Of a stretch of 64,000 bases of DNA, positions 766 to 61,813 are shown one piece after another (position 1 is the stretch's first letter; each line of letters opens with the position of its first letter). Source of the DNA: Mobula hypostoma (Eukaryota); contig NC_086097.1 in the NCBI RefSeq assembly GCF_963921235.1, forward strand, positions 144,090,001-144,154,000, read 5' to 3'. The notes under the pieces were generated by a model. The model was given only the letters and a program-made list of their open reading frames with translations. It was not told the origin of the DNA and ran no database searches. Made by a program: the position numbers and the translations under genes.

Positions 766-3074
766 CTATTTCTTTTGCAAACATTCCTTGTACTGTGATG
801 TGGCTTGCTTGGCAGATTTGAGCATTTTTCCGGAAGTCTCAACCTCATAGTAGTCTGTGTCAATGAATTTGTTAATTTTGCAAAACATCAGATTCGCAAG
901 TGTTTTGTGAGACAGCTGATTTCTGAATTCTGTCTTAATGTGACGCACCATGCTGAATGCCCTTTCTACATCACAATTAGAATTTGGCAGCACCAAAAGC
1001 AGCTTCATCAACTGGCAGAGCTCTTTGAATCTCAACTGCCCTGAGCTCACAGATTTTACTTTGGACAGCTTCCCCCAGAACTCATCAACTGGCAAACTTC
1101 TGTAGTTTGGCACCAGTCCTTCAAGGTTAGTTGAGACATAATCCAGGACTTCCAAGTGGAGCTGCTCTCTTGCATCTGCCTTGATCACATTTGGAAATCT
1201 CTCTGCCAAAGTTAAAATCTGGTCTGGATTCACCTCATCTTGGCTCTCTGTATTGACCACTGACAGACTTTTCAAGATTTGTCCTCTCATTGGGAACTTC
1301 TGCAAGATTTTTTGAAAGCACCTGACATAGAATGCTCTAGCATCTTTGAAGAACTGTTTTGTCTTGTAAGGGGGGATCTCCTGTGCTTCCTCGCTTAGCA
1401 ACTGCCTCCTTGCCAGGTACTCGGTAAAAAGCTCTTCATCTGGGCGGTGAATTTCAGGGTTGCTCACATCTATCTCCTGAATGTTCTGTTCTCTCAATAC
1501 CTTTGGCTCAATAAATCTGCTTGCTATGTCATGCAGGAGCTCTTCTACACTCTGATCCAACTTGAAGAAGATAGGTACCTTGTTTTGAAAAATCAAATTG
1601 AATTTGTCAAAACATTGTGTGACATTATGGAGAAAGCAAGTGTATATTTTCATTTGGGGGTTTCTTCACATTTCAGCCTCTTCTGAATATGAAATGTCTT
1701 CTGATTCTCACTCTTTGACTCAAAATATGAAATAAAGGCTGGCCATTGGTGGAGCAGATGGTCCAAACCTTTTCCTAAAGAAAGCCAGCGTGTAGGACAA
1801 TGCTTTTGTACTCTCTGCTGAGCAACATTGCAGAACTCTTGAAACTGTTTTAGGTCTTCTCTTCGTTTGGAACTTTTCTCAAAGTACTAGTAGATGTCAA
1901 TGAGCAGTTGTTCAGGTGACTTTGAGAGCTCCTTAGCAGCAGTTTTGGCACAAATGTTAACCAGGTGACTTGGACAGCCAACGCTGTAAATATGAGGGGC
2001 CTGTGCTTTCACTCTTGATAAGACAGAGTTGTTTTTGCCAATCATCACATTGCAGTTGTCACTGCTAAATCCTACACAGTTAGACCATTCAAGGCCTTTG
2101 TCAAAAGGCTTTGCATGGACGATGCAATGCAGTTGAATATGTTTTCAGCTTCGGCATCATTGCACACTGGCATGTCTACAAATCCAACTGTTACCTAATC
2201 CTGTTTTTCATTATAGTACCTGGCTAAAATAGTACATTTCTTCTCACACATGATATCATTGCTTTCGTCAACCAAAATACTGTATGGCCTTTTTTCTGTC
2301 CAGATGAACTTGTACGGATCCTCTGAACATTCAGGTTCCAGTACCACGTTCACAATTGCTGCTGTCTTGGTTGATGAGCAGGCATAATTTTTTGCTATTT
2401 CTGAATCAGGAAACATTTTCCTGAATAGCTTGCCTGTGTGCTTACTCACCTGGAATGGCAGGTTATGCTCAACGATGGAAGATGTAAAGTACACTCAGCT
2501 CTAGTGACCTTCTCTGTCAGATACTGGTTTTCTGCTGAAAAGAACTGTGAAATACTTGAGCAGCCTTCCCTGCGATTAGCCTCCCTAATATGTTGTGGTC
2601 CCTAAAGGAAATAAAAGCATAAGGTGTGTCCTTATTATATTGTCTTATGTAATAGTTTGTTTAGTGGTTTTGTCTAATCTGTAAACCAAGTTGGGTATAT
2701 GCAGAAAATGTGACATTAAAATATGTACTTATATTATCATGGAGTCATTTTTTATTCTATTACATCTTTAAGCACGTCTACAGGGAGTTTGGCCTCATCA
2801 CGTAGGTCATCAATAGAGTAGTTCCTTAGCAGCTAGCCAGCTAATTTAAATAACGTTAGCTATGCTGATGAACGAATGACACCTGTTAAACTCACCTCAA
2901 CATGTCTTTTACAGTCATTTAAGCCACCATGGGCAATAGAAAAGTCAAACTGTTGCAAACAGTGCAGTGAGCAACACTGTCATTATTTTTGACCCCTATT
3001 AGGCAGGGGTACACTTTAGTGTAGTCTGGGGTGACGTACATTTTATATTTTCTTTTTTTGAAACACTCTGCCAT
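766..3074 (-). pseudogene. Two-exon hAT transposase pseudogene (BED finger, DDE core, dimerisation domain)
   Basis: ATG at 3074 (MAECFKK); CTVC..RHVE|GPQH zinc finger across intron 2602-2895; ILVDESND, FSSDN, GCPSH and LLVLPNSNCDVERAFS motifs; several stops and frameshifts. Confidence 0.85.
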
Positions 3075-3317
3075 GGCGGTGCAGGACACTAAACTGAACT
3101 GATGGAGGGACAGAGGTCGACTGTAAAGCCCGCTCACAGAGAAAACTGATAGGTGTACTTAGCACAAAGAGAGACCAATCAGGATGCTTGCTCTCACTCT
3201 CCCTCTCCCTCTCAAAAAAACCGATTTCCAGGATATTGTATATAATTTGCGGGCATCAGGGAGCTGCTATCGATATGCGGGAGACTCCCGGAACTTCCGA
3301 GGGAGGTGGGATGTCTG

Positions 3318-3409
3318 GCAGTAGATGTAATAATTTTTGTGCTGGGGTTCCCTGAGACCTGAAAATTATTTCAAGGGTTCCTCCAGGGCAAAAAGATTGA
3401 GAAAGACTG
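3318..3409 (+). mobile_element. 3' terminus of the Charlie-like hAT element
   Basis: Ends aaaagattgagaaagactg (Charlie-type TIR), followed by ctctaatt, which resembles the NTCTAGAN target preference. Confidence 0.65.
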
Positions 3410-3779
3410 CTCTAATTTTTTTGACTTTGCCACTTCTGACTCAGATACGGCCCAATTGCCTGGATTTTATGTTGTATCTGTCAGTTGTTGATTGTGAAGG
3501 GGTCAATGGGGTAAACTGTTAAACAGCCTCATTGAAAATTAAAGCAACTTTTTCATCTTCTGTTATCAGTTTGGTTCACTGGAGTAGTAAGTGCTGGTTC
3601 TCTGAACCTTAGCTTGAATGTTTGGTCTGTCCAATCCATTGTATAATTTCCCTTCTGGAAGCAGATATGAAAGTGACATTTAAGAGGCTTTTAGATGACA
3701 CATTGTTATGCAGGGAAAAGCGGGATATTGTGCATCTGAAGGCAGAGGAGATTTTGTTTAATTTAATTCTAATTTTTAT

Positions 3780-4060: not shown

Positions 4061-7000
4061 CAACGTCAGCACAGACATTATGAGTTCAATGCCCCGTTGC
4101 AGTACTGTACTACTTTATGTTCAATATTCTGCATATGGAGTAAATTAATGAAAATAAATTTTCTCCATTTTAAGGAAGGGCAGGCAATGCAATCATTAAA
4201 CAGATATTTTGGTAGAAACTATTAGAACCAATATTCTGAGGCAAAATTAATTGGTGTATGTAAATGTATAGGCAATATTTTTGAGTTATACACATACATG
4301 TGAAATACAAATTGTGTAAGACTAGTTGATAAGCTCTTTGAAGTAACAGAGAGAGTTAACACTTCATATTTCTACCGGATAACAACCATATAATAAGCAC
4401 ACTTACTGTACTTCAAATGCAAAGTGTTCTCACTATGGGTTTTGACAAGATAGACATTTTTACAGACCACATAGACCTGGAGGCTCAGAGCAGATTCTAC
4501 TCTTCATAAAACTATTTTCTCACGTTTGTTTTTAAAACATTCAATATTTTACAAATTCAAATAGAGCAATATAATATTGCCAACAGTACACAAAGGTCAT
4601 TCCAGCGGAATGAAATCTGGGCTTGTTGGCTTTTGTTGATTAATCAACACAGCTATTGGAAATAAAAATTTGGAATGCATCTTGTACAGGGTAATTGTAC
4701 AGCCACCATCTGCTCATTAAAAAAAAAGCCTCTCCTGTTAAACTGTTGTGGCATTTCTCTCTTAAACTGTCTATTTGCAGCTCTTTTAAATTTTATCACC
4801 CTTTACTATACAATTAACCAAAAAGTTTATCTTTTAATATAGGTCCTCTTAGTCCTCCATGATGTTACAAAGGCTTACAGTCAGGCTAGAGGAAAACAGT
4901 AAGTATTCCATGCTCCATACGTTATGCATCTCTCTCTTAAAGTAAAGATATCCAAATCTGACTTGATGAGATATTTAGATGAGCTTATCAGGAACTAGGC
5001 CTGAAAATAAAGCTATCGTGGTGAAACCTTAACACAGAATCATAAAATCAGAATGTCCCAGCATAACTGGAGCCTACACATGCAGCAGCATTTGTGTCAA
5101 TTCTTCAAAAGTGACGTTTCAACCATTTCCTCATAATCCTGAAAAATACAGCTATTACTGGTCAAAAACCCAAGATGTTCCTCCTAAAATCATTGCAAAG
5201 GTAGATTTACATTAGTTGTGTAGCAGTCTAAGAAGGTAGTCCCCATTACGGCTTTCTGAATAGCCAGGATGACTATGGAATACTCCCATTGTCAATGACA
5301 CTGCTACTCCTTGTATGTTAGCAAGATGATCCTGACTCCTGAATTTCTTTCAAACCATAAGACTTCAGGAAGGTGATGGTTGCTATTCCAACTATTCAAC
5401 ACCTTGACGCTATCAAGAAAATTGCATCAATTTGAGTACCATGCTTTTAACCAATAACATTCTTTATTTTTGCCATTCAATTTATGAAGCTGCTGTGTGT
5501 ACTAATTACTTGATATACTTCAGTTACTTGGCAAGGACTTGTCAATAGCAGTTTCCAAACCTGTGACTTTCTTCTCAGAGAAAAGAAAATGACACAGACA
5601 CATAGAATTCCCCTCCCTCCAAGTTTCTCTCTAATTCAAACAATTTCGATTCACATAGTAATAGTAATTTTTTCAATGTTGGGTAAAGATACTAGTCTTT
5701 ATGGCAAAGCACACACTGTTAATAGAATGCGTACTGCTGTGGAGTAGACATTAGAGAAGGCAGCTTACCATGACTTCTCGTGGAGAACTGCAGTTAGGCA
5801 TCAACTGCCAATGATGCCCATTCTCCAAGCAGAAAATGGACTAAATTCACAGGTTCATAAACTGAGAGTACTGGGTAATAATGATCATAAATTTATAAAA
5901 GTAGAAATAACTGGCTACATTGGAATGATAGACACTTTTTATTGCACAACAGGTAACTGGATTTTGTATACTGAGCAAATTGAGCAGTATTTTCAAGCAA
6001 ATGGAATAGCCGTTGAGAAGCAAGTAGCAATTTTGCTGTGTTCATTGGGTTTAGAGGCATATAGCTTGCTTAGAAGTTTCACTGCTCCAAGCAAACCAAC
6101 CGAAGTGAACTTTGCTGATATTGTGAAAGTAATGCAGAGACATTTAGAAATGAAACCATTGTTGATTGCAGAACATTTTAGGTTTCATAAGTGGAATAAT
6201 AATGAAGAGGAGTCCATTTCAGCATACATGGCTGAATTGAAGAGATTGTCTAAGCATTGTCAGTTCAGTGATGGGCTTAATGGTGCACTGAGAGATTGGT
6301 TACTTTGTGGAATCTTACAAGAAAACGTTCAAAAATGGCTCCTTACTGAAGTGCAACTTGCACTTTAAAGAGAAGTTAAAATAGCTGTACCAAACGAAAC
6401 AGCAGACAAAGACACAATTGAGTTGCAGGCAGGAATACAATTGAGCATCAACAAAATTGCAGTGCCTAAACAGAAAGCAGCCTAGCCTAACAAATTATGT
6501 TGTTGTTGTGGCAGGGGCATATTTACTGTACACCAGACCAATGCAGATTTAGTCTGGTCGCAGAAAATGCCACAAAGTAGGACACATACAAAGAGCATGT
6601 CAGGCAGACAAAAATAAATGCACTGTTCTAGGAAGAAAAAAAGATAAAGTCAAGTTGCTGATGAAAAATCTGATAGTGATGGGAGTGACAAAGGACTGTT
6701 TAGCCTTAGATTTACAGTGTGAAAATTAACAATCAACAAGCACCATGGCTTACACCAGAAGCAAATGGCAAATTAAGTAAAATGGAATTGGACACTGGCT
6801 TGGCTGTTTCAGTCATTCCACAAAATGAGTTTGAATGGCATTTTAAAGATACTAAACTGAAGTCCACAGATATCCAACAAAGAATGTATACTGGAAAAAA
6901 AAAACTCCTGTGGGATGGACATTCGTAACACAGAAATACAACAACCAACAAGCCACATTTGACTTGCATGCGGTAAAACAGGAGGATCAGCATTGTGGGG

Positions 7001-7929
7001 ATGTGACTGGCTGAGACAATTACAACATGATTGGAGATCCATCCACAATTTGCATGCCACGTCCCTGTAATAGAGTCAACTGAAAGCAAATTAAGGAAGA
7101 TACTGTATGATGTGTGTGATGCCACAACAGTGTTCAAAGATGGCACTGGAAAGCTTAAACATTTTATGGGTAACATAGTGTTAAATAAAAATGCCATACC
7201 GAAGTTTTACAAAGCCTTATGCCATCTGTGATAAATTAGCCAGTGAGCTAGATCGCATGAAGGCTGAAAGAATTCTTTGCAAGTTTGTGTGGAGCCCATT
7301 GGCAACACCAATTCTCCCAGAAGCCAAGAAGAATGGATCTACCAGGATCTGTGGTGATTTTAAGGTCACCGGTACCAAAAGTAGATCAATACCCTCTGCC
7401 AAGATAGAGGATATCTTTTTTGCAAAGTGGATTTAGCTGAGGCCTACCTACAGATGGAGGTGGAAAAAGTGTCCAAAGTGCTTCCCATCATAAGCACTCA
7501 GAAAGCACTTTATTGCTATAATAGGCTAATTGTTGGAGTAGCATCTGCACAAGCAGAAAGCTATGGACCAGAAGCTGCAAGGTTATCCAGGCACTCAGTG
7601 TTACCTAGATGACATCATTGTTACTGATAAGGATAACAAGGAACATCTCCAAAATCTCAAGACAGTGTTAATAAGATTTGAAAATTAACGTGCTCAGAGC
7701 ATGACACATTCTTTAAATGAAGCATCACTTACTATGGCACACTATTTATCCATAAGGATTACACAAGTGTGCTGAGAAAATTCTGTGTGCTGGAGGATAC
7801 CCCAAGGCCAAAGGACATGTCAGAGTTGTGGCCTTTTTAGGATTTGTCTATTACTATAACAGGTACCTGCCAAACTGGCTACTGTCCTGCATTCCTTGAC
7901 CTCATTACTACAGATCGGGAAGAAATGGC

Positions 7930-8912
7930 TGTTACAATGGGGCATTTGGGAGCAGACCCAAGAGCAGGACACAGGTATAGAGGGCGGATTAGGATTCTTG
8001 CACAGACTTGAACGTTGATTTGGACTCAGAGCCTGGACTTGGACTTGACTTGGATACCGAGCCTGGACTTGGACTTGACTTGGACACCGAACGACAAAAC
8101 CAAACAAAGACAGACAATTCATATCGCGGCTCAGAGCAGCGGCAAATGGCCTGCAACACTCAGCTGGACACAAGACGACAAAACAACAACAGTCCATTCG
8201 TATCTCAACTCTGGGTAGCTCATGTAGCGGCAAGCGGCCAGCAAACTCAGCTGGATGACAGGCTCTCGACTCGACCCAGGAACTGCAGACTCAACCCAGG
8301 AACAGTGGATGACAGGCCCTTGACTCAACCCAGGAACAGCGGACGACAGGCTCTCGACTCGACCCAGGAACTGTGGACGACAGGCTCTCGACTCGACCCA
8401 GGAACTGCGGATGACAGGCTGTCGACTTGACCCAGGAATTGCAGATGGTAGGTTCTCGACTCGACCCAGGAACAGCGGACGACAGGCTCACGACTCGACC
8501 CAGGAACTACAGACAGCAGGCTCTCAACTCGACCCAGGAGTTGCGGATGACAGGCTCTCGACTCGACCCAGGAATTGCGGATGACAGGCTCTCGACTTGA
8601 CCCAGGAACTGTGGACTTGACCCAGGAATTGCGGACGGCAGGCTCTCGATTTGACCCAGGAACAGCAGATGACAGGCTCACGACTTGACCCAGGAACTGT
8701 GAACGGCAGGCTCTCGACTCGACTCATTCTCGGCGGTCCGGAACGAGCATAGCCGCACTGCTGAGGTGACGAACCAGCAGTGAGTAGATGTAAGCTGGAG
8801 TTTCTGTGCTGCCGGTTCAACTGAGGATCAGGTGCCCCAATCAAGGAGCCCGGTGGAACACGGGGAAAAGGAAATTAACTGAAATGAGGAGTCAATGGAC
8901 TGGACCGCGACA
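7930..8912 (-). mobile_element. Solo LTR with internal minisatellite, inserted in the Gypsy RT/RH linker
   Basis: TG..CA ends; 5-bp TSD atggc at 7925-7929 and 8913-8917; removal restores QIGKKWQWTK. Confidence 0.85.
8255..8725. repeat. ~33-bp minisatellite (about 14 units, some shortened)
   Basis: Repeated gactcgacccaggaactgcggatgacaggctctc-like unit. Confidence 0.9.
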
Positions 8913-10054
8913 ATGGCAATGGACAAAGCCGTCTGATGTGGCTTTCAAAAAGATAAAGGAAATGGTAACATCAAACATTGTACTCACATACTATGATCCA
9001 CATCATCCAGTAAAAATTGCCTGTGATACCTCACTTTATGGTATAGGTACAGTCGTGTCACGTTATGAGTGATAGGAGTGAATGCCCCATAGCCCTTGCA
9101 TCACGTTCCCTTACTACTGCAGTGAAATTATGCCGAGTTTGATAGAAAGTCCTTGAGTCTGGTTTGGGGTGTAAAACATTTCAACTGGTACTTGTAAGGG
9201 AGAGAGTTTACCCTCATTACTGATTATCAGCCACTAGTGTCCATTCTCAATCCACAGAAGTGTGTTCCATAGCAGCAGCAGCACCATTGCAGATATGGAC
9301 TCTGATTCCTGGAGGACACAATTGCAAGATTGAATTCAAGAGGTCAACAAATCATGGAAATACTGATGGATTGTCCCATTTACCCTCTGGAAAAGAAATA
9401 CCTGAAACATTTACAAAAGACGACAGACCTCAAGATGTATTCTCCCTAATGCAAATCGAAAGTCGCTCTTTTATGACAGAGATGATCCAAAGGGAAACCA
9501 GGAAAGACCCCACACTGTCTCAGGTCTATATGGCCACCCAGAATGGCTGGAATGGGGAACAGAAACTCCAGTTTCCCCATTTTTACCAGCACCGGGATGA
9601 ACTTGCCCTTGACAGAAGTCACCTTATATGTGGATAGATAGTTGTCGTACCATCGAAGCTGAGAGCTAAAGTGTTGTAGGAGCTACATGCTGGTCAGATA
9701 GCAATGGTCAAAACAAAAGCATTGGCTTGAAGCTTTGTCGGGTGGCCTGGGATAGCAGATTGAGCAGCTTGCCATGTATTGTTCGGGATGCCAACATGTC
9801 CAAACGAATGGTGTCCAGAGCTATCAAAACCACTTGCTGCAGACACAGAGTCAACTCCTACAACTATCACAGAGGAGGCACAGAACCTGAGATTGTTTCA
9901 CAGCCACAAGTCTCACCTGCCAAGCAGAGTGATCCCCCTAGTCAGGAAAGACTTATACCACAACAGTAAGAAATCCTTCACATTGATTAAATCTTTAGGC
10001 CTGAATGGGACAATTAAAAAAATTTTAAGTGGTAGAATGCATCTCAACTTATGT

Positions 10055-10099
<45 letters not shown>

Positions 10100-10433
10100 T
10101 ATATACACACACACACAACGTTTGTGTGTATACATAAATTGTAAGTTGAGATGCATTCTATATTGATTTGGAGCTTATAGCAGGGAGGGGTTGTGTATTT
10201 AATATTTCTGTAATATTTGAGTAATACTCTAAATATATTATTTGATTAAGCATTCCCTGTTTAAATAATTCATTGTGGGTTATTTGTAAGAGTATGTGAA
10301 TGGCATACATCATCGCAATGCCATATCATATGTATATGCCATACTGAAGTAAAAAATGAAACAGATACAGTTGCTCCCGTGTTTTTTTCTTTTAATTAGT
10401 TTTTATGCTTTGGGTTTACAAATGATAGCAACA

Positions 10434-12890: not shown

Positions 12891-13639
12891 AGTAAACATA
12901 GTAAAACCTCAGAGGGGGTAGCTGAGGGACGACACTGTGGGAGTAGCCAGGCCGTTGTATGTACAGTGCAGATGGTGATTCTGGCCTGGTATTTCTGCAG
13001 TGAACAGGGAGTCCAGAGACTGACATTCAGGCTTTGTGCATTTCCCTGGACCAATACTGGGACAGTACTGAGGGAGTTCAGTCAACGTTGCTATGTTTCG
13101 TAACTACAAAACATTAAACTAATTCAATGCAAGACACAGGAGTCGGAAATGTGAGTCAAACTTCATATTTTACTTTAAGTGAGGTAGCGTGATGACATAT
13201 GCAATTCATATATTTATACATAGAACACAATGAATTATTTAAACAAACAGGAATGCTTAATCAAACAATATATATACAAGATTACTCACATATTAATGAA
13301 ATACTGAATACACAACACTCTTCCTGCTTACCTATAAACTCCAACTCAATAGAGAATGCATCTTTATACACAATATACTGTATAATACAACTACTATATA
13401 AACACATCCACAGCATAGTACATTTTAAATTGTCCTCTTCAGGTCTAAAGATTTAATAGCAGTGGAGGCTTCCTTACTGATGTGAGATAACATCTTTCAT
13501 AACAAGGAAGAACACTCTGCTTGGCAGGTGATTCTTGTGGCTGTGAAACAATCTCAGGTTCTGGGGTCACATCCGTGGTGTTTGTAGGAATTGACTCTGA
13601 AACTACAGGAAGTGATTCTGACAGCGATAACTACCTTTC

Positions 13640-13950
13640 CTCTTCTTCCCTTTTCTTCTTCTCGTTCACACATCTTAATCTTGAAAATGAGCATTCAGTT
13701 CACTGGAGTATTCTCTTATTAATCCTCCTGTTGCTCCCGTTACGATCTGATCTCTTCTCTTGGCTTCCTCATCCGCAACATCCTCTGATGAACTCTCTAT
13801 ATTCATACCTTTATTGACTCCATTCTTTTTAGCCTTCCATTCATCTAACTGGGCTTTGGCTTTTACATCTACTGTTAGAAGCAGCTTTTTTTGCCTCCAA
13901 CTCGAAGTTCATGCAATAACCTTAATGCACATAGAGCAGATTCTGATTCT
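13640..13950 (-). pseudogene. RBM25: RBM25 retrocopy fragment, 3' part (RRM C-terminal half and following helix)
   Basis: SESALCALRLLHELRVGGKK/LLLTVDVKAKAQLDEWKAKK..DEEAKRRDQIV..LIREYSSELNA matches recalled vertebrate RBM25; one frameshift and stops. Confidence 0.85.
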
Positions 13951-14991
13951 TGTTACATACCCCGTAACTGGGTTGCCAAACCAGCAGAAATGGATCACTC
14001 AGTTGGAGTCTGGATTACTAGAACTAAGAAAGTTTTATTAAAGAAACAAGCAACACAGTACTCTAATCAAAAGGATAATGAATGCAACAGTTCAGCAATG
14101 ATAAACATACATGTACACAGAATTAAGATAACAGGATCAATCAAGCTCTATCGTTGTCTAGGGGTAAATGACCAGTTTCAAAGTGACGCAAAGTTCAGTT
14201 CAATTTAGTTCAGTTCAGTTCGCAGTAATCACTGCTGTGGCGATGGACAGTGGGGGGGGGGGGGGGGGGAGGAGAGAGAGAGCAAAACGAATGAATATTC
14301 AAAACGACTTCCACACAGACCTCCGCAGTCAGCTTTCGGGCGAGTCCTTTGTGATGTCATCTGAGGTCACCGACCGTGACCCCCTCCGTTTCCAGATACG
14401 ATCGTTTCCCTGCGGTGAACCTGGCACCCAGGCAAGGGTGGACACACACCAGGTTCCCGCCGATCGTGCCTTTCCACCCTGTGTGTCTATGGCCCGATAC
14501 TTCCCACCGACTTGTGAGAGATGCACCGCTTCCAGGGTCTTGTTACCTCGGGTGTCGTGTGTGTCTTGCCTTAGCGAACCTGTCCCTTTTTATCCCCCTG
14601 CTGGGGTATCGCCTGTCCATCACTTCAAACAGTTCTGGGTTCAAAGGGGGAGCCGATCTTGACAGCTCTCCTTCCCCTTCATTAACATCTCCAAATGCTG
14701 CTCCATTGTTTTCCTTATCTCTCTTTCTCCTGAAGACAGGTGGCAGACCAACTGCTGATTCCACCGGTGCCAACACAGGACAGCTACATCTTAATCTATG
14801 TGTATTCTTGTCACACTTCCCCCCTTTAAGGATTTTTACTGGGGGGTAAAAATTACAAACATGAATACATTATTTGATACACACACAAATATACATCTTT
14901 GTCAGCTATTTGGCTGATACAGCGAGTTTGAAGTTGTCAACACCTGACAGACAGTCAGCCATCACATTTTCTGTTCCTTTTATATGTGCTA

Positions 14992-16685
14992 TTAATAATC
15001 CCTTAGACCAGGCTCCAACTTAGCAAACTTCATAGTGGCCAAAAACACTGATGAATTGCGATCAATGTAACCTCTCATTGGGTTTCGTCCCGGACCACAA
15101 TAACAAGGGTCGTCCCATTCTGACTTAGTTTTCTCTCGCAAGGGCTTAGTAGGAGGGGGAGGGGTGGTAACCGCAGAGTTATTGCAAAACTTCCTACAGT
15201 ACCCCACCATCTCCAAGAGCCTTCTGAGGGCCCTCTTGTCTGTCGGGGTTGGGATGTCAGCGATAGCCTGCACTGTAGCTTGCATCGCTGCCAGCTGCCC
15301 CTGTGTCACCACAATTCCCAGGTAAGTGACCTTCGGGTGGCCGAACTCATTTTTTTCAAGGTTCACTATCAAGCTGGCTTCAGACAGCCGTATTACATCA
15401 CCAATACACACCTCTGTGTTCGTCAGCCCTTTAGTCACTGAATTACTCATTCTATATGGGTGTTGCTCGTTAGGCTAACCTAGTGTAACAAACACCACCC
15501 AACGTCTCAGTTCTTTGCATCGCCTCGGGACAATCAAACACACAGGTGCGAGTCGTTTAATTACTTCTCCTAAAGAGTCACTTTGTTCGGGGATTAAGGG
15601 AGAGACCTTATCAGCAGACCTGGCCAAAACAATAGCCTTCTCCCATCTGGTCGATACCATACTCATCTTTTCAAAATGTTTTTTTTTCTTATCGGGGGGA
15701 CCCTAGCTTCATTGATTTCCGCGCTAACACCGACTAGGTTTGTTAGCATATCAAAAGTCTGTGACCGTCTCAGTTCGCGTCGGCCATAATCAATAACATC
15801 CTTCCTCCGGTGCAGCCGGTAAACCTCTTTCATGATTCCACCAACTGTTCCCTCCAGTACCGCAAAATGTCCACCGGGGTGTACCTTGTGGGCCAGGTTA
15901 AAAACCTCATCCCCATAACTCTTTTGCACCACCCCCCATTCCTCATCTGCGGGTACGGTACTTGGTTTCCCTTTCTTCCTTAGCACTTCCTCCTCCACAC
16001 AATAGCCTACTAGTTCCCTTGTTAGGTCTGTGTCAGAGAGAGCTGTCCCTGCCGAAACCATCAGCCCCTTGTCTCACTCCTGCACCTGCACAAATTCTTT
16101 CCTGGCTAATGCTATGTCTGTCCCAGCTCCCTCACTACCTCTTGTCTCACTACACTCCTTCTTTTCACTTTCTACCCACTTCTGGTACAAGGCTGGCAGA
16201 AACGTCTCAGCTAAATTTACTACTGCAGTCCCGTGATGAACCTGTGAGTCCATGGGCGGGGCCTCAATGCTGGCAGGCTGACCTGTCAATCTCACTGCTT
16301 CGAACACGATTCCCCCGGCGAGGGCATTACCGAGCAAGACTTCCACGCCTTTCATCGGTAATTCGGACCTCACCCCGATCGTGACTAGTCCAGAGACCAG
16401 GTTGCTTTGTAAGTGTATCTGGTGCAAAGGGACTGCTTCCATCCCTTTTCCAATGCCTTTGACCTTGACCTCCCCAGTCTGGGTCTCTGAGCTAACCTCT
16501 AATACACTCTTCAGTATTAGTGACTGACACACTCCCGTGTCTCTCCAGATCCGCACTGGAACTGGTTTTAACCCCTCCTTCACTGACACCAATCCGGCCG
16601 AGATAAACTTCTCGCGCCCTTCCTGAACCTTGGCAGACCTGTCCTTCCCTAGCGGTTCGTTTACCAGCTCGATACAGCCAGTCAA
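14992..16685 (-). pseudogene. Protease plus decayed integrase zinc-binding and RT remnants
   Basis: WRDTGVCQSLI protease; LAHKVHPGGH IN-like; VTYLG..PTPTDKRALRRLLEMVGYCRKFC RT thumb; catalytic cores missing. Confidence 0.75.
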
Positions 16686-16807
16686 AATCGCCGTTTTTCC
16701 TTTTCTTGTCTCCTTCTTTGGGGCAAAGCACCTGGACGCAAAGTGTCCGACTTTCCCGCAATTATAACAGACGACCCCAGGAGACTTCCTACCAGACTGC
16801 TTCCGGT

Positions 16808-17920
16808 CTACCTTATCCTTCTCACTAGTCCCTGGCTTACTTTCTGACTTTTCTGGCGGACTCTCCCCGCCGTCCTGACTACCCTTCTGGTAGCCTTTAC
16901 TTGGGGCAACTTCATTTTATGCGTCAACGCATACTCATCCGCTAACTTAGCAGTTGCGGCTAACGTGGCTGCCTCTTTCTCATCTAGGTAGGGTCTCATA
17001 CCCTCAGGGACACAACCTTTAAACTGCTCAATCAGGATCAGCTGTAGCAGTCTGTCATAATCCCCCTCTACCCCCTTCGAGGCGCACCAACGCTCACAAT
17101 ATGTCTGCATCTCACAGGCAAACTCTAAATACGTGCCGTCCCACTGCTTCCTTGCATTCCGGAACCTCTGCCGGTATGCCTCCAGGACCAACTCATAAAT
17201 CCTAAGGATGGCCTCTCTCACCACCTCATACCTCTGGGCATCTTCCGCGGACAAAGCTGAGTAAGCTTCTTGGGCTTTCCCTTTCAGTACACTCTGAAGC
17301 AAAACAGCCCACTTATCCCTCGGCCAGTCCTGACTTATAGCCACTTTTTCGAAATGGAGAAAGTACTGATCCACATCGGTATCGTCAAATGGGGGAACCA
17401 GCCTAACCTCCTGGGTCGCCCAGAACCCTCCACCTTGGTTCGGCATGGGCCCCTGCTCTGCCCTTATCTTTAATTTCTCCAGCTCGAATTCCCGTTCCCT
17501 CTGTTTCTCCTCTCGCTCCAGCTGTCTCTCTCTCTCTCTCTCCTGCCTTTCTAACTGTTTCTCTTTCTCCCGCCTTTCTAACTCTCTCTCCTTCTCTTCT
17601 CGCTCCAACTGTCTGTCCCTCTCTTTCTCTTCTCGCTCCAACTGCCGTACCCGGAACTCGTGCTCGAGTCTCAGTTTTTCAAGCTGCACCTGTACCGCGT
17701 CTCCGGCAGGTTTTTCAATAGACACCACCTCCAGCTCACCTTGGTGAAACACACCTTTAGATACATAGTGCTCTATGATAGCTCTGTGTATCTCCTCTCT
17801 CCTCATTGTCCACTTCCCCTTAGCAAGATTCAATCGTTTGGCCACAGCTACCAATTCCGATTTCCTTGCATCGTCTAATGCCTCCAAGGTCGGCGCCTTT
17901 ATAATTTCCTCAGCCTCCAT
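16808..17920 (-). CDS. Gag of the Gmr1-like element (coiled coil plus SCAN-like capsid domain); frameshift before the CCHC knuckle
   Basis: 370-aa ORF with EAYRQRFRN and LILIEQFK..YLDEK..AKLADEY; CYNCGKVGHFASRC at ~16730-16770 in another frame. Confidence 0.8.
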   Translation of the reverse strand: MEAEEIIKAPTLEALDDARKSELVAVAKRLNLAKGKWTMRREEIHRAIIEHYVSKGVFHQGELEVVSIEKPAGDAVQVQLEKLRLEHEFRVRQLEREEKERDRQLEREEKERELERREKEKQLERQERERERQLEREEKQREREFELEKLKIRAEQGPMPNQGGGFWATQEVRLVPPFDDTDVDQYFLHFEKVAISQDWPRDKWAVLLQSVLKGKAQEAYSALSAEDAQRYEVVREAILRIYELVLEAYRQRFRNARKQWDGTYLEFACEMQTYCERWCASKGVEGDYDRLLQLILIEQFKGCVPEGMRPYLDEKEAATLAATAKLADEYALTHKMKLPQVKATRRVVRTAGRVRQKSQKVSQGLVRRIR

Positions 17921-18882
17921 TTCTGCTGTTTGTCTTTTCTTTCTTTCGGGAATTTTGACCCAATCAATTTACTCCATCCCAAATTTAGCGTTCAAAATCG
18001 CGGACGAGAACCCCACTTATGTTACGTACCCTGTAACTGGGTTGCCAAACCAGCAGAAATGGATCACTCAGTTGGAGTTTGGATTACTAGAACTAAGAAA
18101 GTTTTATTAAAGAAACAAGCAACACAGTACTCTAATCAAAAGGATAATGAATGCAACAGTTAAGCAATGATAAACATACATGTACACAGAATTAAGATAA
18201 CAGGATCAATCAAGCTCTATCGTTGTCTAGGGGTAAATGACCAGTTTCAAAGTGACGCAAAGTTCAGTTCAATTTAGTTCAGTTCAGTTCGCAGTAATCA
18301 CTGCTGTGGCGATGGACAGTGGGGGGGGGGGGGGGAAGGAGAGAGAGAGCAAAACGAATGAATATTCAAAACGACTTCCACACAGACCTCCGCAGTCAGC
18401 TTTCGGGCGAGTCCTTTGTGATGTCATCTGAGGTCACCGACCGTGACCCCCTCCGTTTCCAGATACGATCGTTTCTCTGCGGTGAACCTGGCACCCAGGC
18501 AAGGGTGGACACACACCAGGTTCCCGCCGATCGTGCCTTTCCACCCTGTGCGTCTATGGCCCGGTACTTCCCACCGACTTGTGAGAGACGCACCGCTTCC
18601 AGGGTCTTGTTACCTCGGGTGTCATGTGTGTCTTGCCTTAGCGAACCTGTCCCTTTCTATCCCCCTGCTGGGGTATCGCCTGTCCATCACTTCAAACAGT
18701 TCGGGGTTCAAAGAAGGAGCCGATCTTGACAGCTCTCCTTCCCCTTCATTAACATCTCCAAATGCTGCTCCATTGTTTTCCTTATCTCTCTTTCTCCTGA
18801 AGACAGGTGGCAGACCAACTGCTGATTCCACTGGTGCCAGCACAGGACAGCTACATCTTAATCTATGTGTATTCTTGTCACA

Positions 18883-19104
18883 TTCTTTATACTCATGAAA
18901 GCAAAATGCTCGCAACTTTCCTGAAGCTCCTTGAACTTTCTTCCAGCTTAAAACCAAGCCACATTTCACAAGTAACTGCTTGATTAACATATCAGAAACT
19001 TCCTCGGATATGTTGCCTACTGTTTCATGTTCCCTCTGAGCAGCATGGTCCTTCTTTGGTCCAATGTGCTTTCCAACCAGAGGCACAGGACTTGGCATGA
19101 ACAC
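18883..19104 (-). pseudogene. RBM25: RBM25 retrocopy fragment, 5' part (RRM N-terminal half)
   Basis: VGKHIGPKKDH..VGNISEEVSDMLIKQLLVKCGLVLSWKKVQGASGKLRAFCFHEYKE. Confidence 0.88.
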
Positions 19105-20324
19105 CTGTTTACCCTCTGTTTAGGAACAGTTCATGGTGTACAGCTAGGAGACAATTGTAGTGTCATCCAGTACTCTTCTTAATTTGCTTTTAATTGACTC
19201 TGTTGTATTTTCCTCATCCACTCACATCCCCAGAAGCCCAATGTGGCTTGTTAGTTGCTGTATTTCACTGTTACAAATGTTATTCCCAGAGGAGTTATCT
19301 GTTTTTCATTATAATTTCTTAGTTGGATATCTGCAGGCTTCAATTCAGTATCTTTGAAATGCTGTTCAAACCCATTTTGCAGAATGACTGAAGCAGCCAA
19401 ACCAGTGTCCAATTCCATTGTAATCATTTTGCCATTCACTTCTGGTGTAAGCCATATTGCTTGCCTATTAGTAGCTTTCATATTGTAAATCTCATGGCTG
19501 GTCAGTCACTCTCATCATTATCAGACTTTTCATCAACAGCATGCAGTTCAGTGTTCTTTTCAAAATGGCAACTTGACTTTTTAGCCTTTTCTTTTCTCTG
19601 TGCAGACCATTTATTTTGTCTGCCTGACATGCTGTTCGTATGTATTCTACTTTATGGCATTTTCTGCAAGTTTCTGCAACCAGACTAAGCTTTCATTAGT
19701 CTGGTGTATGTGAGCCCCTGGTTCGGTCAGGCTGGTTTCTGTTAGACATGGAATTTAGTTTATGCTCACTTTCATTCCTGACTGAAACCCATATGCAACT
19801 TAATGTTTGCTGTTTCCATTGATACAGTAATTTCAGCTGCCTTTTTAAATGTAAATTGTACTTCAGTTAGGAGCTGTTTTTGAATGTTTTCTTGTAAGAT
19901 TCCACAAATTAAACCATCTCCCAGTGCATCATTAAACTCATATAGAACTGAAAATGCTCATCCAATCTCTTCAATTCAGCCACATATGCTGAAATGACTC
20001 CCCTTCCTTTTGATTCCACTTATGAAACCTAAAACATTCTTCCATCAACAATGGTTTTGGTCCTATATGTTCCTGTATTACTTTTACAATATCAGCAAAG
20101 CTCATTTCCAAATTGTTTGGTTGGAGCAGTTAAACTTCAAAGTAAACTGCATGTCTTTAAACCCAAAACACTCAGTAAAATTGGTACTCATTTCTCATTG
20201 GCCATTTCATTCGCTTCAAAATACTTTTCACTTAGCTCATTATATATGAGCCCATTATCTCTTCTGGATTCAAACCTCTACTTCTGCTCTTTCAGGCATT
20301 TCTGGTCGTTTTTTAAAATTTTTA

Positions 20325-26940: not shown

Positions 26941-29900
26941 GTTCACCTCCACTCTCACCAAAAACTTCCTTCAACAGCTTGGCTCTCTCCTTGAGGTGTT
27001 TTCTTTTTCTTTTTTCTTTTTTCTTTTTTTCTCTCTCTCTCTCTCTCCTCTCCCCCCCCCCACCCCCACCCCCACCCCCCCCCCCAACCACCACCATTTT
27101 CCAGTCACAACTCAACTCCTGGATCACCTCCAAAAAAACGAATCTGTCCCCAGCAAGCACACTCAACCCCAGGGCCACTTATATTCCCAGCTCCAAGATG
27201 AGCATCAGCTGCCTATGATTAAGCCCAAATGAAACAAGTGACAGCTGGAAGACCTGGAGTCCGGAGTCCACGGACCGGACCATGACAGTACCACCTCACA
27301 CTTCTTCGGGTTGAATTCCATCTGCCACTTCTCAGCCCACTTCTGTATCCAATCATTGTCTTTCTTCAGTCTTCGAAAATCCTCTACACTATCCACCACA
27401 ACACCAACCTTTGTGTCGTCTGCAAACTTGTCAACCCACCCTTCTACCCCAACATCCAGGTTGTTAGTAAAAATCACGAAAAGTAGAGGTCCTAGAACTG
27501 ATCCTTGTGGGACACCACTAGTCACATCCCTCCAACCCGAACGTACTTCCTCCACCACGACCCTCTGCTTTCTGCAGGCGAGCCAATTCTGGATCCATCT
27601 GGCCAAACTTCCTTGGATCCCATGCCTTCTGACTTTCTGAATAAGACTACCATGTGGAACCTCGTCAAATACCTTAATAAAATCCATGTAGATCACATCC
27701 ACTGCACTACCTTCATCTATGTGCCTGGTCACCTCCTCAAAGAACCCTATCAGGCTTGTTAGACACGATCTGGCCTTCACAAAGCCATGCTGACTGTCCC
27801 TGATCAGACCATGATTCTCTAAATGTCCATAGATCCTATCTCTAAGAATCTCTTCCAACAGCTTTCCCACCACAGACGTAAGTCTCACTGGTCTATAATT
27901 ACCCGGACTATCCCAACTACCTTTTTTGAACAAGGGGACAACATTCACCGCCCTCCAATCCTCCAGTACCACTCCTGTGGACAATGAGGACATGAAGATC
28001 CTAGCCAGAGGCTCAACAATCTCTTCCCTTGCCTCGTGGAGCAGCCTGGGGAATATTACGTCAGGCCCCGGGGACTTATCCATCCTAATGTATTTTAACA
28101 ACTCCAACATCTCATCTCCCTTAATATCAACATGCTCTAGAACAACAACCTCACTAAAATTGTCCTCACCTTTCATTTGTGAATACCGAAGAGAAGTATT
28201 CATTGAGGACCCTGCTCACTTCCACAGCCTCCAGGCACATCTTCCCACCTTTATCTCTAATTGGTCCTACCTTCACTCCTGTCATCATTTTTTTCTTCAC
28301 ATAATTGAAGAATGCCTTGGGGTTTTCCTTTACCCTACTTGCCAAGGCCTTCTCATGCCCCCATCTTACTCTCCTCAGCCCCTTCTTAAGCTCCTTTCTT
28401 GCTTCCCTATATTCCTCAATAGACCCATCTGATCCTTGCTTCCTAAACCTCATGTATGCTGCCTTCTTCCATCTGACAAGATTTTCCACCTCACTAGTCA
28501 CCCATGGTTCCTTCACCCTACCATTCTTTATCTTCCTTACCGGGAAAAATTTACCCGTAACATCCAGCAAGTGATCCCTAAACATCGACCACATGTCCAT
28601 GGTACATTTCCCTGCAAAAATATCATCCCAATTCACACCCGCAAGTTCTAGCCTCATAGCCTCATAATTTGCCCTTCCGCAATTAAGAATTTTCCTGTCC
28701 TCTCTGATTCTATCCTTTTCCATGATAATGTTAAAGGCCAGGGGGCAGTGGTCACCCACTGAGAGATCTGTGACTTGACCCGGTTCGTTACCTAATACTG
28801 GTATTGCATTCCCCCAGTCAGCCTGTCAACACATTGTGACAGAAATCCGTCCTGGACATACTTAGCAAACTCTGCCCCGTCTAAACCATTGGAGCTAATC
28901 AGGTGCCAATCAATATTAGGGAAGTTAAAGTCACCCATGATAACAACCCTGTTAGTTTTGCACTCTTCCAAAAACTGCCTCCTAATCTGCTCCTCGGTAT
29001 CTCTGCTATTACCAGGGGGCCTGTAGAATACTTGCAATTAAGTAACTGCTCCCTTCCTGTTCCTGACTTCTCCCCATACTGGCTCAAAAGTGGATCCTGC
29101 TACATTACACACCCTTTCTGTAGCTGTAATAGTATCCCTGACCAGTAATGCCACCCTCCTCCCCTTTCGCCCCCACTCTCTAACCCTTTTAAAGCACTGA
29201 AATCCAGGAATATTGAGAATCTGTTCCTGCCCTGGTGCCAGCCAAGTCTCTGTAATGGCCACTACATCATAACTCCATGTATGTGTCCAAGCTCTCAGTT
29301 CATCACCTTTGTTCCTGATGCTTCTTGCATTGAAGTACACGCACTTTAGCCCTTCTACCTTTACACCCTCTATTCTGCTTCTCTTTCGTCAAAGCCTCTT
29401 TATATGTTAGATCTGGCTTTTACTCCATGCACTATACTTGCAGTTCTCGCATGACCTTTATCCTTCTTCACCTCACTATCTGCTCTAACCCTCTGGTTCC
29501 CCTCCCCCTGCAGATCTAGTTTAAACCCCCCGGAGCAGCACTAGCAAATCTTCCCGCAAGAATGTTAGTCCCCCTCCAGTTCAGGTGCAACCCGTCCCGT
29601 CAGAACAGGTCCCACCTTCCTTGGAACAAGGCCCAGTTGCCCATTGAATATTTCGCTCAGCTCTGCAATGTGCAGTTTCTGTGTGCGATCCCATCGAAGG
29701 GCAAGGATTTACAAGGCTCTTCTGACTAATTATTCCGCTTAGGAAAATCAGCACTCTGCAATCTCTGACGAAGATGAAGCAGATTCTCCAACTATTGCCT
29801 TTTCTTAGATATTTTCAGGAATTTTAGCTTATTTTCTTTAGATTATATCGCACTTTAAATTGGCTACCTGAACTGCCTTCCCTCTTTAGTTGTAAATAGT

Positions 29901-59079: not shown

Positions 59080-61813
59080 GGGTTAGAGATACCGAGGAGC
59101 AGATTGGGAAACAGATTTTGGAAAGGTGCAAAAATAACAGGGTTGTTATCATGGGTGACTTTAACTTCCCTAATATTGATTGACACTGGATTAGTTCCAA
59201 TGGACGGATTCCTGTCACAGTATGTTGACAAGCTGACTAGGGGGAATGCCATACTAGATTTACTATTAGGTAACAAACCGGGTCAGGTCACAGATCTCTC
59301 AGTGGGTGAGCATCTGGGGGACAGTGACCACCGCCCCCTGGCCTTTAGCATTATCATGGAAAAGGATAGAATCAGAGAGGACAGGAAAATTTTTAATTGG
59401 GGAAGGGCAAATTCTGATGCTATAAGGCTAGAACTTGCAGGTGTGAACTGGGATGATGTTTTTGCAGGGAAATGTACTATGGACATGTGGTCGATGTTTA
59501 GTCATAGTCATAGTCATACTTTATTGATCCCGGGGGAAATTGGTTTTCATTACAGTTGCACCATAAATAATAAATAGTAATAGAACCATAAATAGTTAAA
59601 TAGTAATATGTAAATTATGCCAGTAAATTATGAAATAAGTCCAGGACCAGCGTATCGGCTCAGGGTGTCTGACCCTCCAAGGGAGGAGTTGTAAAGCTTG
59701 ATGGCCACAGGCAGGAATGACTTCCTATGACGCAACTGTAACCGGCTGCATGCACGGCCGGTGCATGCGCACAAAATGAATGGGATCTCTTGCAGGATGT
59801 TAGGGATAAATTTGTCCCAGTGAGGAAGATGAAAAATGGTAGGGTGAAGGAACCATGGGTGACAAGTGAGGTGGAAAATCTAGTCAGGTGGAAGAATGCA
59901 GTATATATGAGGTTTAGGAAGCAAGGATCAGATGGGTCTATTGAGGAATATAGGGTAGCAAGAAAGGAGCTTAAGAAGGGGCTGAGGAGAGCAAGAAGGG
60001 GGCATGAGAAGGCCTTGGCAAGTAGGGTAAAAGAAAGCCCCAAGGCATTCTTCAATTATGTGAAGAACAAAAGGATGACAGGAGTGAAGGTAGGACTGAT
60101 TAGAGATAAAGGTGGGAAGATGTGCCTGGAGGCTGTGGAAGTGAACGAGGTCCTCAATGAATGCTTCTCTTCGCTATTCACCAATGAGAGGGAATTTGAT
60201 GATGGTGAGGACAATATGAGCATGTTGATATTAAGGGAGAGGAGGTGTTGGAGTTGTTAAAATACATTGGGACGGATAAGTCCCCAGGGCCTGATGGAAT
60301 ATTCCCCAGGCTGCTCTACAAGGCTAGGGAAGAGATTGCTGAGCCTCTGGCTAAGATCTTTATGTCCTCTTTGTCCACAGGAATGGTACCGGAGGATTGG
60401 AGAGAGGTGAATGTTGTCCCCTTGTTCAAAACAGGTAGTGGGGATAGTCTGGATAATTTTAGACCAGTGAGCCTTACGTCTGTGGTGGGAAAGCTGTTGG
60501 AAAAGATTCTTATAGATAGGATCTATGGGCATTTAGAGAATCACGGTCTGATCAGGGACAGTCAGCATGGCTTTGTGAAGGCCAGATCGTGTCTAACAAG
60601 CCTAATAGATGTCTTTGAGGAGGTGACTAGGCATATTGATGAGGGTAGTGCAGTGGATGTGATCTACGTGGATTTTAGTAAGACATTTGACAAGATTCCA
60701 CACAGGAGGCTTATTCAGAAAGTCAGAAGGCATGGGATCCAGGGAAATTTGACGAGGTGGATTCAGAATTGGCTTGCCTGCTGAAAACAAAGGGTCGTGA
60801 TGGAGGGAGTACATTTGGATTGGAGGGTTGTGATTAGTGGTGTCCCACAAGGATCGGTTCTGGGACCTCTACTTTTCGTGATTTTCATTAACGACCTGGA
60901 TGTGGGGCTAGAAGGGTGGGTTGGCAAGTTTGCAGACAACACAAAGGTTGGTGGTGTTGTGGATAGTGTAGAGAATTGTCGAAGATTGCAGAGAGACATT
61001 GATAGGATGCAGAAGGGGGCTGAGAAGTGGCAGATGGAATTCAACCCAGAGAAGTGTGAGCTGGTACACTTTGGAAAGTCAAACTCCAAGGCAGAGTACA
61101 AAGTAAATGGCAGGATACTTGGTAGTGTGGAGGAACAGAGGGATCTGGGGGTACATGTCCACAGATCCCTGAAAGTTGCCTCACAGGTAGATAGGGTAGT
61201 TAAGAAAGCTTATGGTGTGTTAGCTTTCATAAGTCGAGGGATAGAGTTTAAGAGTCGCGAGGTAATGATGCAGTTCTATAAAACTCTGGTTAGGCCACAC
61301 TTGGAGTACTGTGTCCAGTTCTGGTCGCCTCACTATAGGAAGGATGTGGAAGCATTGGATAGGGTTCAGAGGAGATTTACCAGGATGCTTCCTGGTTTAG
61401 AGAGTATGGATTATGATCAGAGATTAAGGGGGTTAGGGCTTTACTCTTTGGAGAGAAAGAGGATGAGAGGAGACATGATAGAGGTGTACAAGATAATAAG
61501 AGGAATAGATAGAGTGGACAGCCAGCGCCTCTTTCCCAGGACACCGCTGCTCAATACAAGAGGACATGGCTTTAAGGTAAGGGGTGGGAAGTTAAGGGGG
61601 ATATTAGAGGAAGGTTTTTTACTCAGAGAATGGTTGGTGCGTGGAATGCACTGCCTGAGTCAGTGGTGGAGGCAGATACACTAGTGAAATTTAAGAGACT
61701 ACTGGACAGGTATATGGAGGAATTTAAGGTGGGGGTTATATGGGAGGTAGGGTTTAAGGGTCGGCACAACATTGTGGGTCGAAGGGCCTGTACTGTGCAG
61801 TACTGTTCTATGT
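59080..61813 (+). mobile_element. 5'-truncated CR1 (same subfamily as 23760-29640)
   Basis: GDFNFP, SDH, PQGSVLGP, FADN ORF fragments; near-identical peptides to the minus copy; ttctatgtt tail. Confidence 0.9.
59500..59780 (-). mobile_element. Rex1 3' end inserted in CR1
   Basis: (gactat)n tail, GGSDTLS end; CR1 resumes at gggatctcttgcagg. Confidence 0.8.

Follow-up and report, generated by a model that had tools for sequence, protein, structure and literature searches.

The stretch of DNA considered here, called the window below, comprises 64,000 nucleotides (nt) of the Mobula hypostoma contig NC_086097.1 (assembly GCF_963921235.1, positions 144,090,001 to 144,154,000). On its minus strand it holds a Gypsy long terminal repeat (LTR) retrotransposon in which gag and protease sequence is followed by part of the messenger RNA (mRNA) of the splicing factor RBM25, this cargo being split by a second LTR element, after which come the remainder of the cargo, the Gypsy tail and a 3' LTR (Table 1). 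A preliminary description of the window, made from the sequence alone, had read the same order and had proposed a captured host message. We find that the window copy is one of a large family, and it is very probable that this family arose when the reverse transcriptase (RT), the RNase H and most of the integrase of a Gypsy element were replaced by spliced RBM25 mRNA, captured once and then multiplied.

The outer element in the window is a dead copy of its Gypsy family. Its gag-protease stub matches gag-asp_protease weakly in a Pfam scan (E 0.067), no 5' LTR was found within the window, and the cargo carries stops and a frameshift near 13894, in line with the disabled state first described. Likewise as proposed, the cargo stands in the place of RT, RNase H and the integrase core, which are absent, and a related, cargo-free family exists. 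The DNA upstream of the gag stub we take to be LINE-like, i.e., derived from a long interspersed nuclear element (LINE).

That the cargo is RBM25 is borne out by the best protein matches of its first piece, which are RBM25 proteins (52 proteins at E<=0.001 among 68 candidates), and as the top match is a Heptranchias RBM25-like protein (E 5.4e-23), the source points to a cartilaginous fish. Pfam RRM_1 is matched weakly by this decayed piece (E 0.0018, below the cut-off), and a PDB sequence search returned generic RRM matches only. The host gene, located by a protein search with the RBM25 C-terminal part, lies on the same contig as the window (G000:C1), at about 99.79-99.84 Mb; a search with the PWI family had given three matches, none of them RBM25. 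Compared with this gene, whose exons are given in our own numbering, the window cargo matches a 48-nt exon and exons 4, 5, 6 and 7, its pieces, taken separately, differing from the host at 36 of 269 and 46 of 272 sites, and it crosses at least four splice junctions at which host introns of 1.7-4.8 kb are missing, so the intron-less nature of the cargo stands. Some boundaries require revision. The approximately 55 nt left unassigned by the preliminary description are the 48-nt host exon and the end of the preceding exon, and the cargo starts at about 19162 rather than at 19104. The purine-rich run at the 3' end, described as possible microhomology, is such for 9 nt at the switch point, while the run itself represents the start of exon 9 and exon 10, not exon 7 (84% over 31 nt to the start of host exon 9, E 0.006, ending in the exon-10 junction). 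The peptide of the 48-nt exon is present in two Heptranchias RBM25-like isoforms and in one unnamed protein, and is not found in the three bony-fish RBM25 proteins compared. An upstream alternative acceptor in the host gene (G000:C1:99829175-99829160) adds four residues in the Heptranchias isoform X1 and gives a stop in this host.

Table 1. Features of the captured RBM25 locus and of the cargo-free relative in the window (window coordinates)
Feature	Position	Strand	Remarks
Degraded Gypsy gag-protease-RT stub, outer element	20320-19163	minus	1048 nt align at 74% identity with the Gypsy relative (5967-6965)
5' switch point, last 10 nt of RBM25 exon 3	19162-19153	minus	9 nt common with Gypsy pol; decayed in the window copy
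48-nt RBM25 exon	19152-19105	minus	Host G000:C1:99832633-99832586; 86% identity; AG/GT sites
RBM25 exon 4 (33 nt missing), exon 5 and start of exon 6	19104-18883	minus	Introns absent; first half of the RRM
Nested younger Gypsy element	18882-13951	minus	Splits the cargo inside exon 6
LTRs of the nested element	18882-18020 and 14815-13951	minus	863/865 nt; TG...CA ends
4-bp target-site duplication of the nested element	18886-18883 and 13950-13947		AGAA
Remainder of exon 6 and most of exon 7 of RBM25	13950-13667	minus	No intron; identity to the host 85% (exon 6) and 83% (exon 7)
Remnant of RBM25 exon 9 start and exon 10	13666-13635	minus	Shortened by internal deletions; the 3' switch point, with 9-nt purine microhomology, lies at its end
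Gypsy integrase C-terminal tail and 3' untranslated region	13634-13330	minus	79% to the relative at 9820-10020; same tail in cargo-free relatives
Polypurine tract	13329-13318	minus	Read from sequence
3' LTR of the outer element	13317-13089	minus	Boundaries set from LTR pairs of 217-261 nt in other copies
Decayed cargo-free member of the parent Gypsy family, pol sequence kept	5967-10432	plus	Parent side of the 5' junction near 7118

The size of the family follows from its chimeric junction. With at most one mismatch, the 21-nt junction has 622 matches in the genome and its reversed control has none, and with 21 of 81 sampled copies passing the junction pattern, the fraction used for scaling, the estimate is about 2,400 copies (1,700-3,700), and the true number is probably higher, given the good preservation of the sampled copies. 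The 81 are distinct copies, representing 88 loci minus seven duplicates, and in 75 of them a single alignment crosses four to six splice junctions, one counted junction adjoining the 5' microhomology. DNA searches with each half of the cargo produced 2,374 and 2,303 candidates, all 40 scored matching both times, and a protein search produced 5,555 candidates, of which 150 were scored, with 151 matches; these candidate counts are not copy numbers. The preliminary description had suggested a search for other copies sharing the junctions, and its proposal of capture by template switching is supported; that the capture had given rise to a family of about 2,400 copies had escaped it.

Both junctions show 9-nt microhomology to the parent, and the family has one 5' junction in common. 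At this junction, the match to the host cDNA begins at one and the same base, with 10 nt of exon 3 left, in 53 of the 81 copies; nine of these ten bases (TGCCACAAC) are common to the parent pol and RBM25, and the base following the shared 9-mer is of the host type (T) in 49 of the 53. At the other end, the cargo stops in exon 10 at GAGAAGAAA, a sequence found at the same place in the integrase tail in five of the 11 cargo-free relatives with the tail located. Shared runs of at least 9 nt occur by chance in 4.2e-5 of random position pairs (7.5e-4 for 7 nt). In none of the 81 copies does the match extend outside cDNA positions 141-1235, exon 8 is kept in eight of them and the boundary between exons 9 and 10 is crossed in 19, and the founder cargo consisted of about 1,072 nt of mRNA, reaching from the last bases of exon 3 into exon 10. 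None of the 29 relative loci of the cargo-free type contains the cargo. From 499 nt in the founder, the distance between exon 7 and the tail has been reduced to between 449 and 30 nt in the 50 measurable copies, with 49 nt, the class of the window copy, as the commonest (16 copies); in this commonest short class, a 119-nt deletion causes the RBM25 frame to be lost after exon 7. Neither this longer founder cargo, later shortened by deletions, nor the in-frame fusion to Gag-protease at the 5' junction had been noticed before. Some cargo-free relatives (window 9790-9815, L134, L137 and L140) are deleted from the integrase zinc-finger region to the very tail position where the cargo ends, hinting at a switch hotspot.

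Beyond the window copy, the family displays what is expected of non-autonomous LTR elements, i.e., paired LTRs, a primer-binding site, a polypurine tract and target-site duplications (TSDs) of its own at independent sites. Among 40 hand-picked longer loci, the start of the 3' LTR is found in 31 and LTR pairs in 16, with a median difference of 0.19, and among the 10 elements with both ends callable, 33 of 50 flank positions agree as a 5-bp TSD, versus 15.5 by permutation, three of the TSDs being perfect. A 4-bp TSD is unsupported for the outer family (12 vs 10.7, p 0.36). Halving the corrected LTR distance gives 0.11 per site, some twelvefold the 0.009 of the nested element, and this agrees with the mean distance of the copies from the column majority, 9.7%. 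A rate of 7e-10 in sharks is given per generation, not per year (PMC10587355). In four runs labelled as four organisms, one of which may be from the same species, contigs pile up on the cargo, with summed depths of 21,000-50,000 at 18904-19004 (5-32 for single listed contigs), depth not being copy number, and the bin 18601-18701, in the nested LTR, is covered in only one of the four; no long contig bridging the insertion site of the window copy was found in these runs. This suggests that the outer family predates the splits of those species and that the nested family does not.

As the two halves of the cargo are directly contiguous in 26 of the 29 other loci, the nested element entered the window copy at a later time; its TSD, first described as ttct, is the AGAA duplication of the minus strand, ttct being the plus-strand form. 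Its LTRs differ by 16 substitutions in 863 aligned positions (1.85%). Gmr1-type Gypsy elements carry the integrase upstream of RT. A SCAN domain in gag, found in the nested element by a Pfam scan (E 8.5e-13) along with a zf-CCHC zinc knuckle (E 1.5e-6), is common to both (PMC4131045), but in the nested element pol is short and broken, with no Pfam hit at E 0.1 in the two pol fragments scanned, and the order of integrase before RT was not confirmed by a domain hit. All 40 scored relatives, among 1,942 candidates, are at 95-100% identity, and close relatives match over the same 501 nt; at only 4.9 kb, the element may itself belong to a young, high-copy deleted family. Elsewhere in the window, a 34-nt tandem repeat array (8220-8767) lies within an insertion interrupting the pol of the cargo-free relative, and a long inverted match of about 90% identity (27288-29004 vs 59085-61067) likely represents two copies of one dispersed repeat.

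The sequence of events that best accounts for these data would begin with RBM25 mRNA co-packaged in a Gypsy particle, where a double template switch during copying would have captured it, once. The chimera, sharing its LTR, gag and tail with intact relatives, would then have been mobilised in trans by their enzymes, probably in a burst soon after the capture and with the RBM25 cargo as an unselected passenger; later internal deletions shortened the cargo stepwise, and a much younger element nested in the window copy.

One alternative accepts the same capture and gives the cargo a role: an in-frame Gag-protease-RRM fusion would enter assemblies with helper Gag-Pol and act in cis to the benefit of its own RNA, and it would thus drive the amplification. 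We consider this unlikely, although it explains several observations. In natural copies, a single reading frame continues across the 5' junction, and in the column-majority codons of 59 copies the cargo frame stays free of stops for 420 codons ahead of this junction, compared to 46 and 33 for the other two frames. The founder thus likely encoded a single Gag-protease-RBM25 protein, its 3' join being out of register with the integrase tail. A cis-acting Gag fusion has a reported precedent in the gag-pol fusion of mouse IAP 1delta1 (PMC6466679). However, one join in three would be in frame by chance. In an unpolarised comparison of the host with the column majority, covering 192 codons and non-CpG differences, 19 are synonymous and none non-synonymous, a borderline excess (12.8 synonymous expected, P 0.063) that suits a useful fusion, and a short wait between capture and burst explains it equally well. 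Also favourable to such a fusion, all seven non-CpG variants common to at least 14 of 78 copies fall outside the RRM (counting exon-coding positions away from the deletion), and the three cargo lengths seen in at least three copies keep the exit frame of the founder (32 of 50 copies). Distinct cargo lengths, in turn, spread evenly over the three frames (10, 9 and 8), and non-synonymous to synonymous rates per opportunity stand at ratios of 0.85-1.20 in gag, protease and cargo, the RRM included (1.18 for transitions, 0.86 for transversions), with shared transversions being neutral (11 synonymous to 58 non-synonymous, vs opportunities of 186 to 996).

Stops are present in 69 of 78 copies and a frameshift in 53, nine being without in-register stops. 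With the stops and the frameshift of the window copy and the family ratios near 1, the cargo shows neither the intact frame nor the purifying selection of a functional or domesticated retrogene. Linkage among shared variants is limited to one pair at p<1e-4, and the tree is star-like, with 7% internal length. Clade-diagnostic counts in gag were set aside, being dominated by a four-copy cluster, an apparent alignment artefact. The junction-spanning frame matched only proteins of the RBM25 type, over at most 75% of its length (the best 120 of 166 matches, from 512 candidates, lengths 154-492), weakly suggesting that there is no chimeric protein on record. Altogether, a passenger carried by a burst soon after capture is favoured over a working fusion, and the fuller proposal, of a Gypsy lineage that swapped its enzyme core for an RRM fused to Gag-protease, by this aided the packaging of its own RNA, and so reached thousands of copies in several related fish species, appears rather improbable.

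Some points count against capture of a passenger followed by amplification. The switches themselves cannot be seen, and one common parent variant at the 5' site shares only 7 nt, the parent being polymorphic there. As the 5' LTR is missing, the own TSD of the window copy is uncheckable. The copies were sampled by best score rather than at random, and intact junctions guided the choice, by hand, of the 40 long loci. The host comparison leaves room for a period of selection, the star-like tree gives the selection test low power, and the gag columns include non-homologous flank from truncated copies.

A route that we regard as very improbable starts from a LINE-made processed RBM25 pseudogene, inserted into a Gypsy copy with a large pol deletion, the resulting chimera being then amplified. 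LINE retroposition can delete target DNA. It is also common in vertebrates (Tan et al., 2016, PMC5131818), but the cargo ends inside exon 10, far from the 3' end of the mRNA, it lies in the sense of the element, each of its ends falls within an exon and shows 9-nt microhomology to the Gypsy parent, and neither a poly(A) tail nor a TSD is seen around it at the junction sequences compared. The preliminary description had named such a tail and duplication as the marks of LINE-mediated insertion, and the two microhomologies already largely refute this route. Segmental or tandem duplication of one chimeric locus, for which a single pair of loci sharing an 80-mer 1.2 Mb apart might speak, has practically no chance of explaining the family, as the copies are spread over dozens of contigs on both strands, their similarity stops at the element ends, and their flanks differ and bear 5-bp TSDs of their own, so that duplication is refuted for the 10 elements with both ends callable. 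The pair itself (L064 and L065, G000:C96, at about 22.42 and 23.60 Mb) is on opposite strands, with the identical 80-mer in both, which suggests that this segment was duplicated recently; in L064, moreover, the first 470 nt of the cargo are tandemly repeated.

Overall, capture of spliced RBM25 mRNA by a Gypsy element, followed by amplification, would mean that a fragment of a cellular message turned into a mobile family that prospered in a vertebrate, its copy number exceeding those in the papers cited by two to three orders of magnitude. Its copies form a fossil record of both switch points, of an ancient splice form of RBM25 and of the stepwise shrinking of the cargo, and with this history preserved, whether a captured cargo is a passenger or a driver becomes testable in a case that is clean and datable. 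Thousands of sense-homologous copies of the message of an essential splicing factor could feed small-RNA silencing, and they would be expected to confuse RBM25 annotation and read mapping in these genomes. In the literature outside supplements and subscription journals, we found no paper linking RBM25 to shark retrotransposons or retrocopies and, judging by titles and the opening lines of abstracts, none on this family, and Repbase or Dfam may catalogue it; the main text of the Greenland shark preprint does not mention RBM25.

LTR-mediated retroposition is known in animals, and its chimeric products are able to behave as non-autonomous elements (Tan et al., 2016, PMC5131818). The retrocopies described there consist of partial spliced mRNA flanked by discontinuous parts of an LTR element, with microsimilarity at both switch points, sense orientation, in-frame fusion and secondary retroposition, and the RBM25 family agrees with them in its spliced cargo, its flanking on both sides by a discontinuous LTR element, its microsimilarity and its lack of a poly(A) tail and a TSD around the cargo. 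Those cases, however, are of single or few copies, although the supplements may hold more, compared to about 2,400 copies and a deletion series here. One parallel is the maize Bs1, as presented in the same paper, an LTR element with host exonic sequence and switch points common to all copies, which differs in having one to five copies and three parental genes, and in belonging to a plant. Another is presented by the crocodilian CrocERV29 (KIT-ligand) and CrocERV31 (nectin3), also ancient captures of host mRNA in slow-evolving vertebrates, with further copying (PMC4299795). These are retroviral rather than Gypsy, number nine and six copies and keep pol, and their captured frames are intact under purifying selection, unlike the RBM25 cargo. 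A third is the mouse IAP 1delta1, a non-autonomous LTR subtype with an in-frame Gag fusion and strong amplification (PMC6466679), where the fusion arose by internal deletion, with no host cargo, and where the cis effect was established by experiment, while here it is a proposal. The mechanism of capture is thus a known one, and it is the scale of the RBM25 family that is unusual, far above the one to nine copies of the cases described in these papers.

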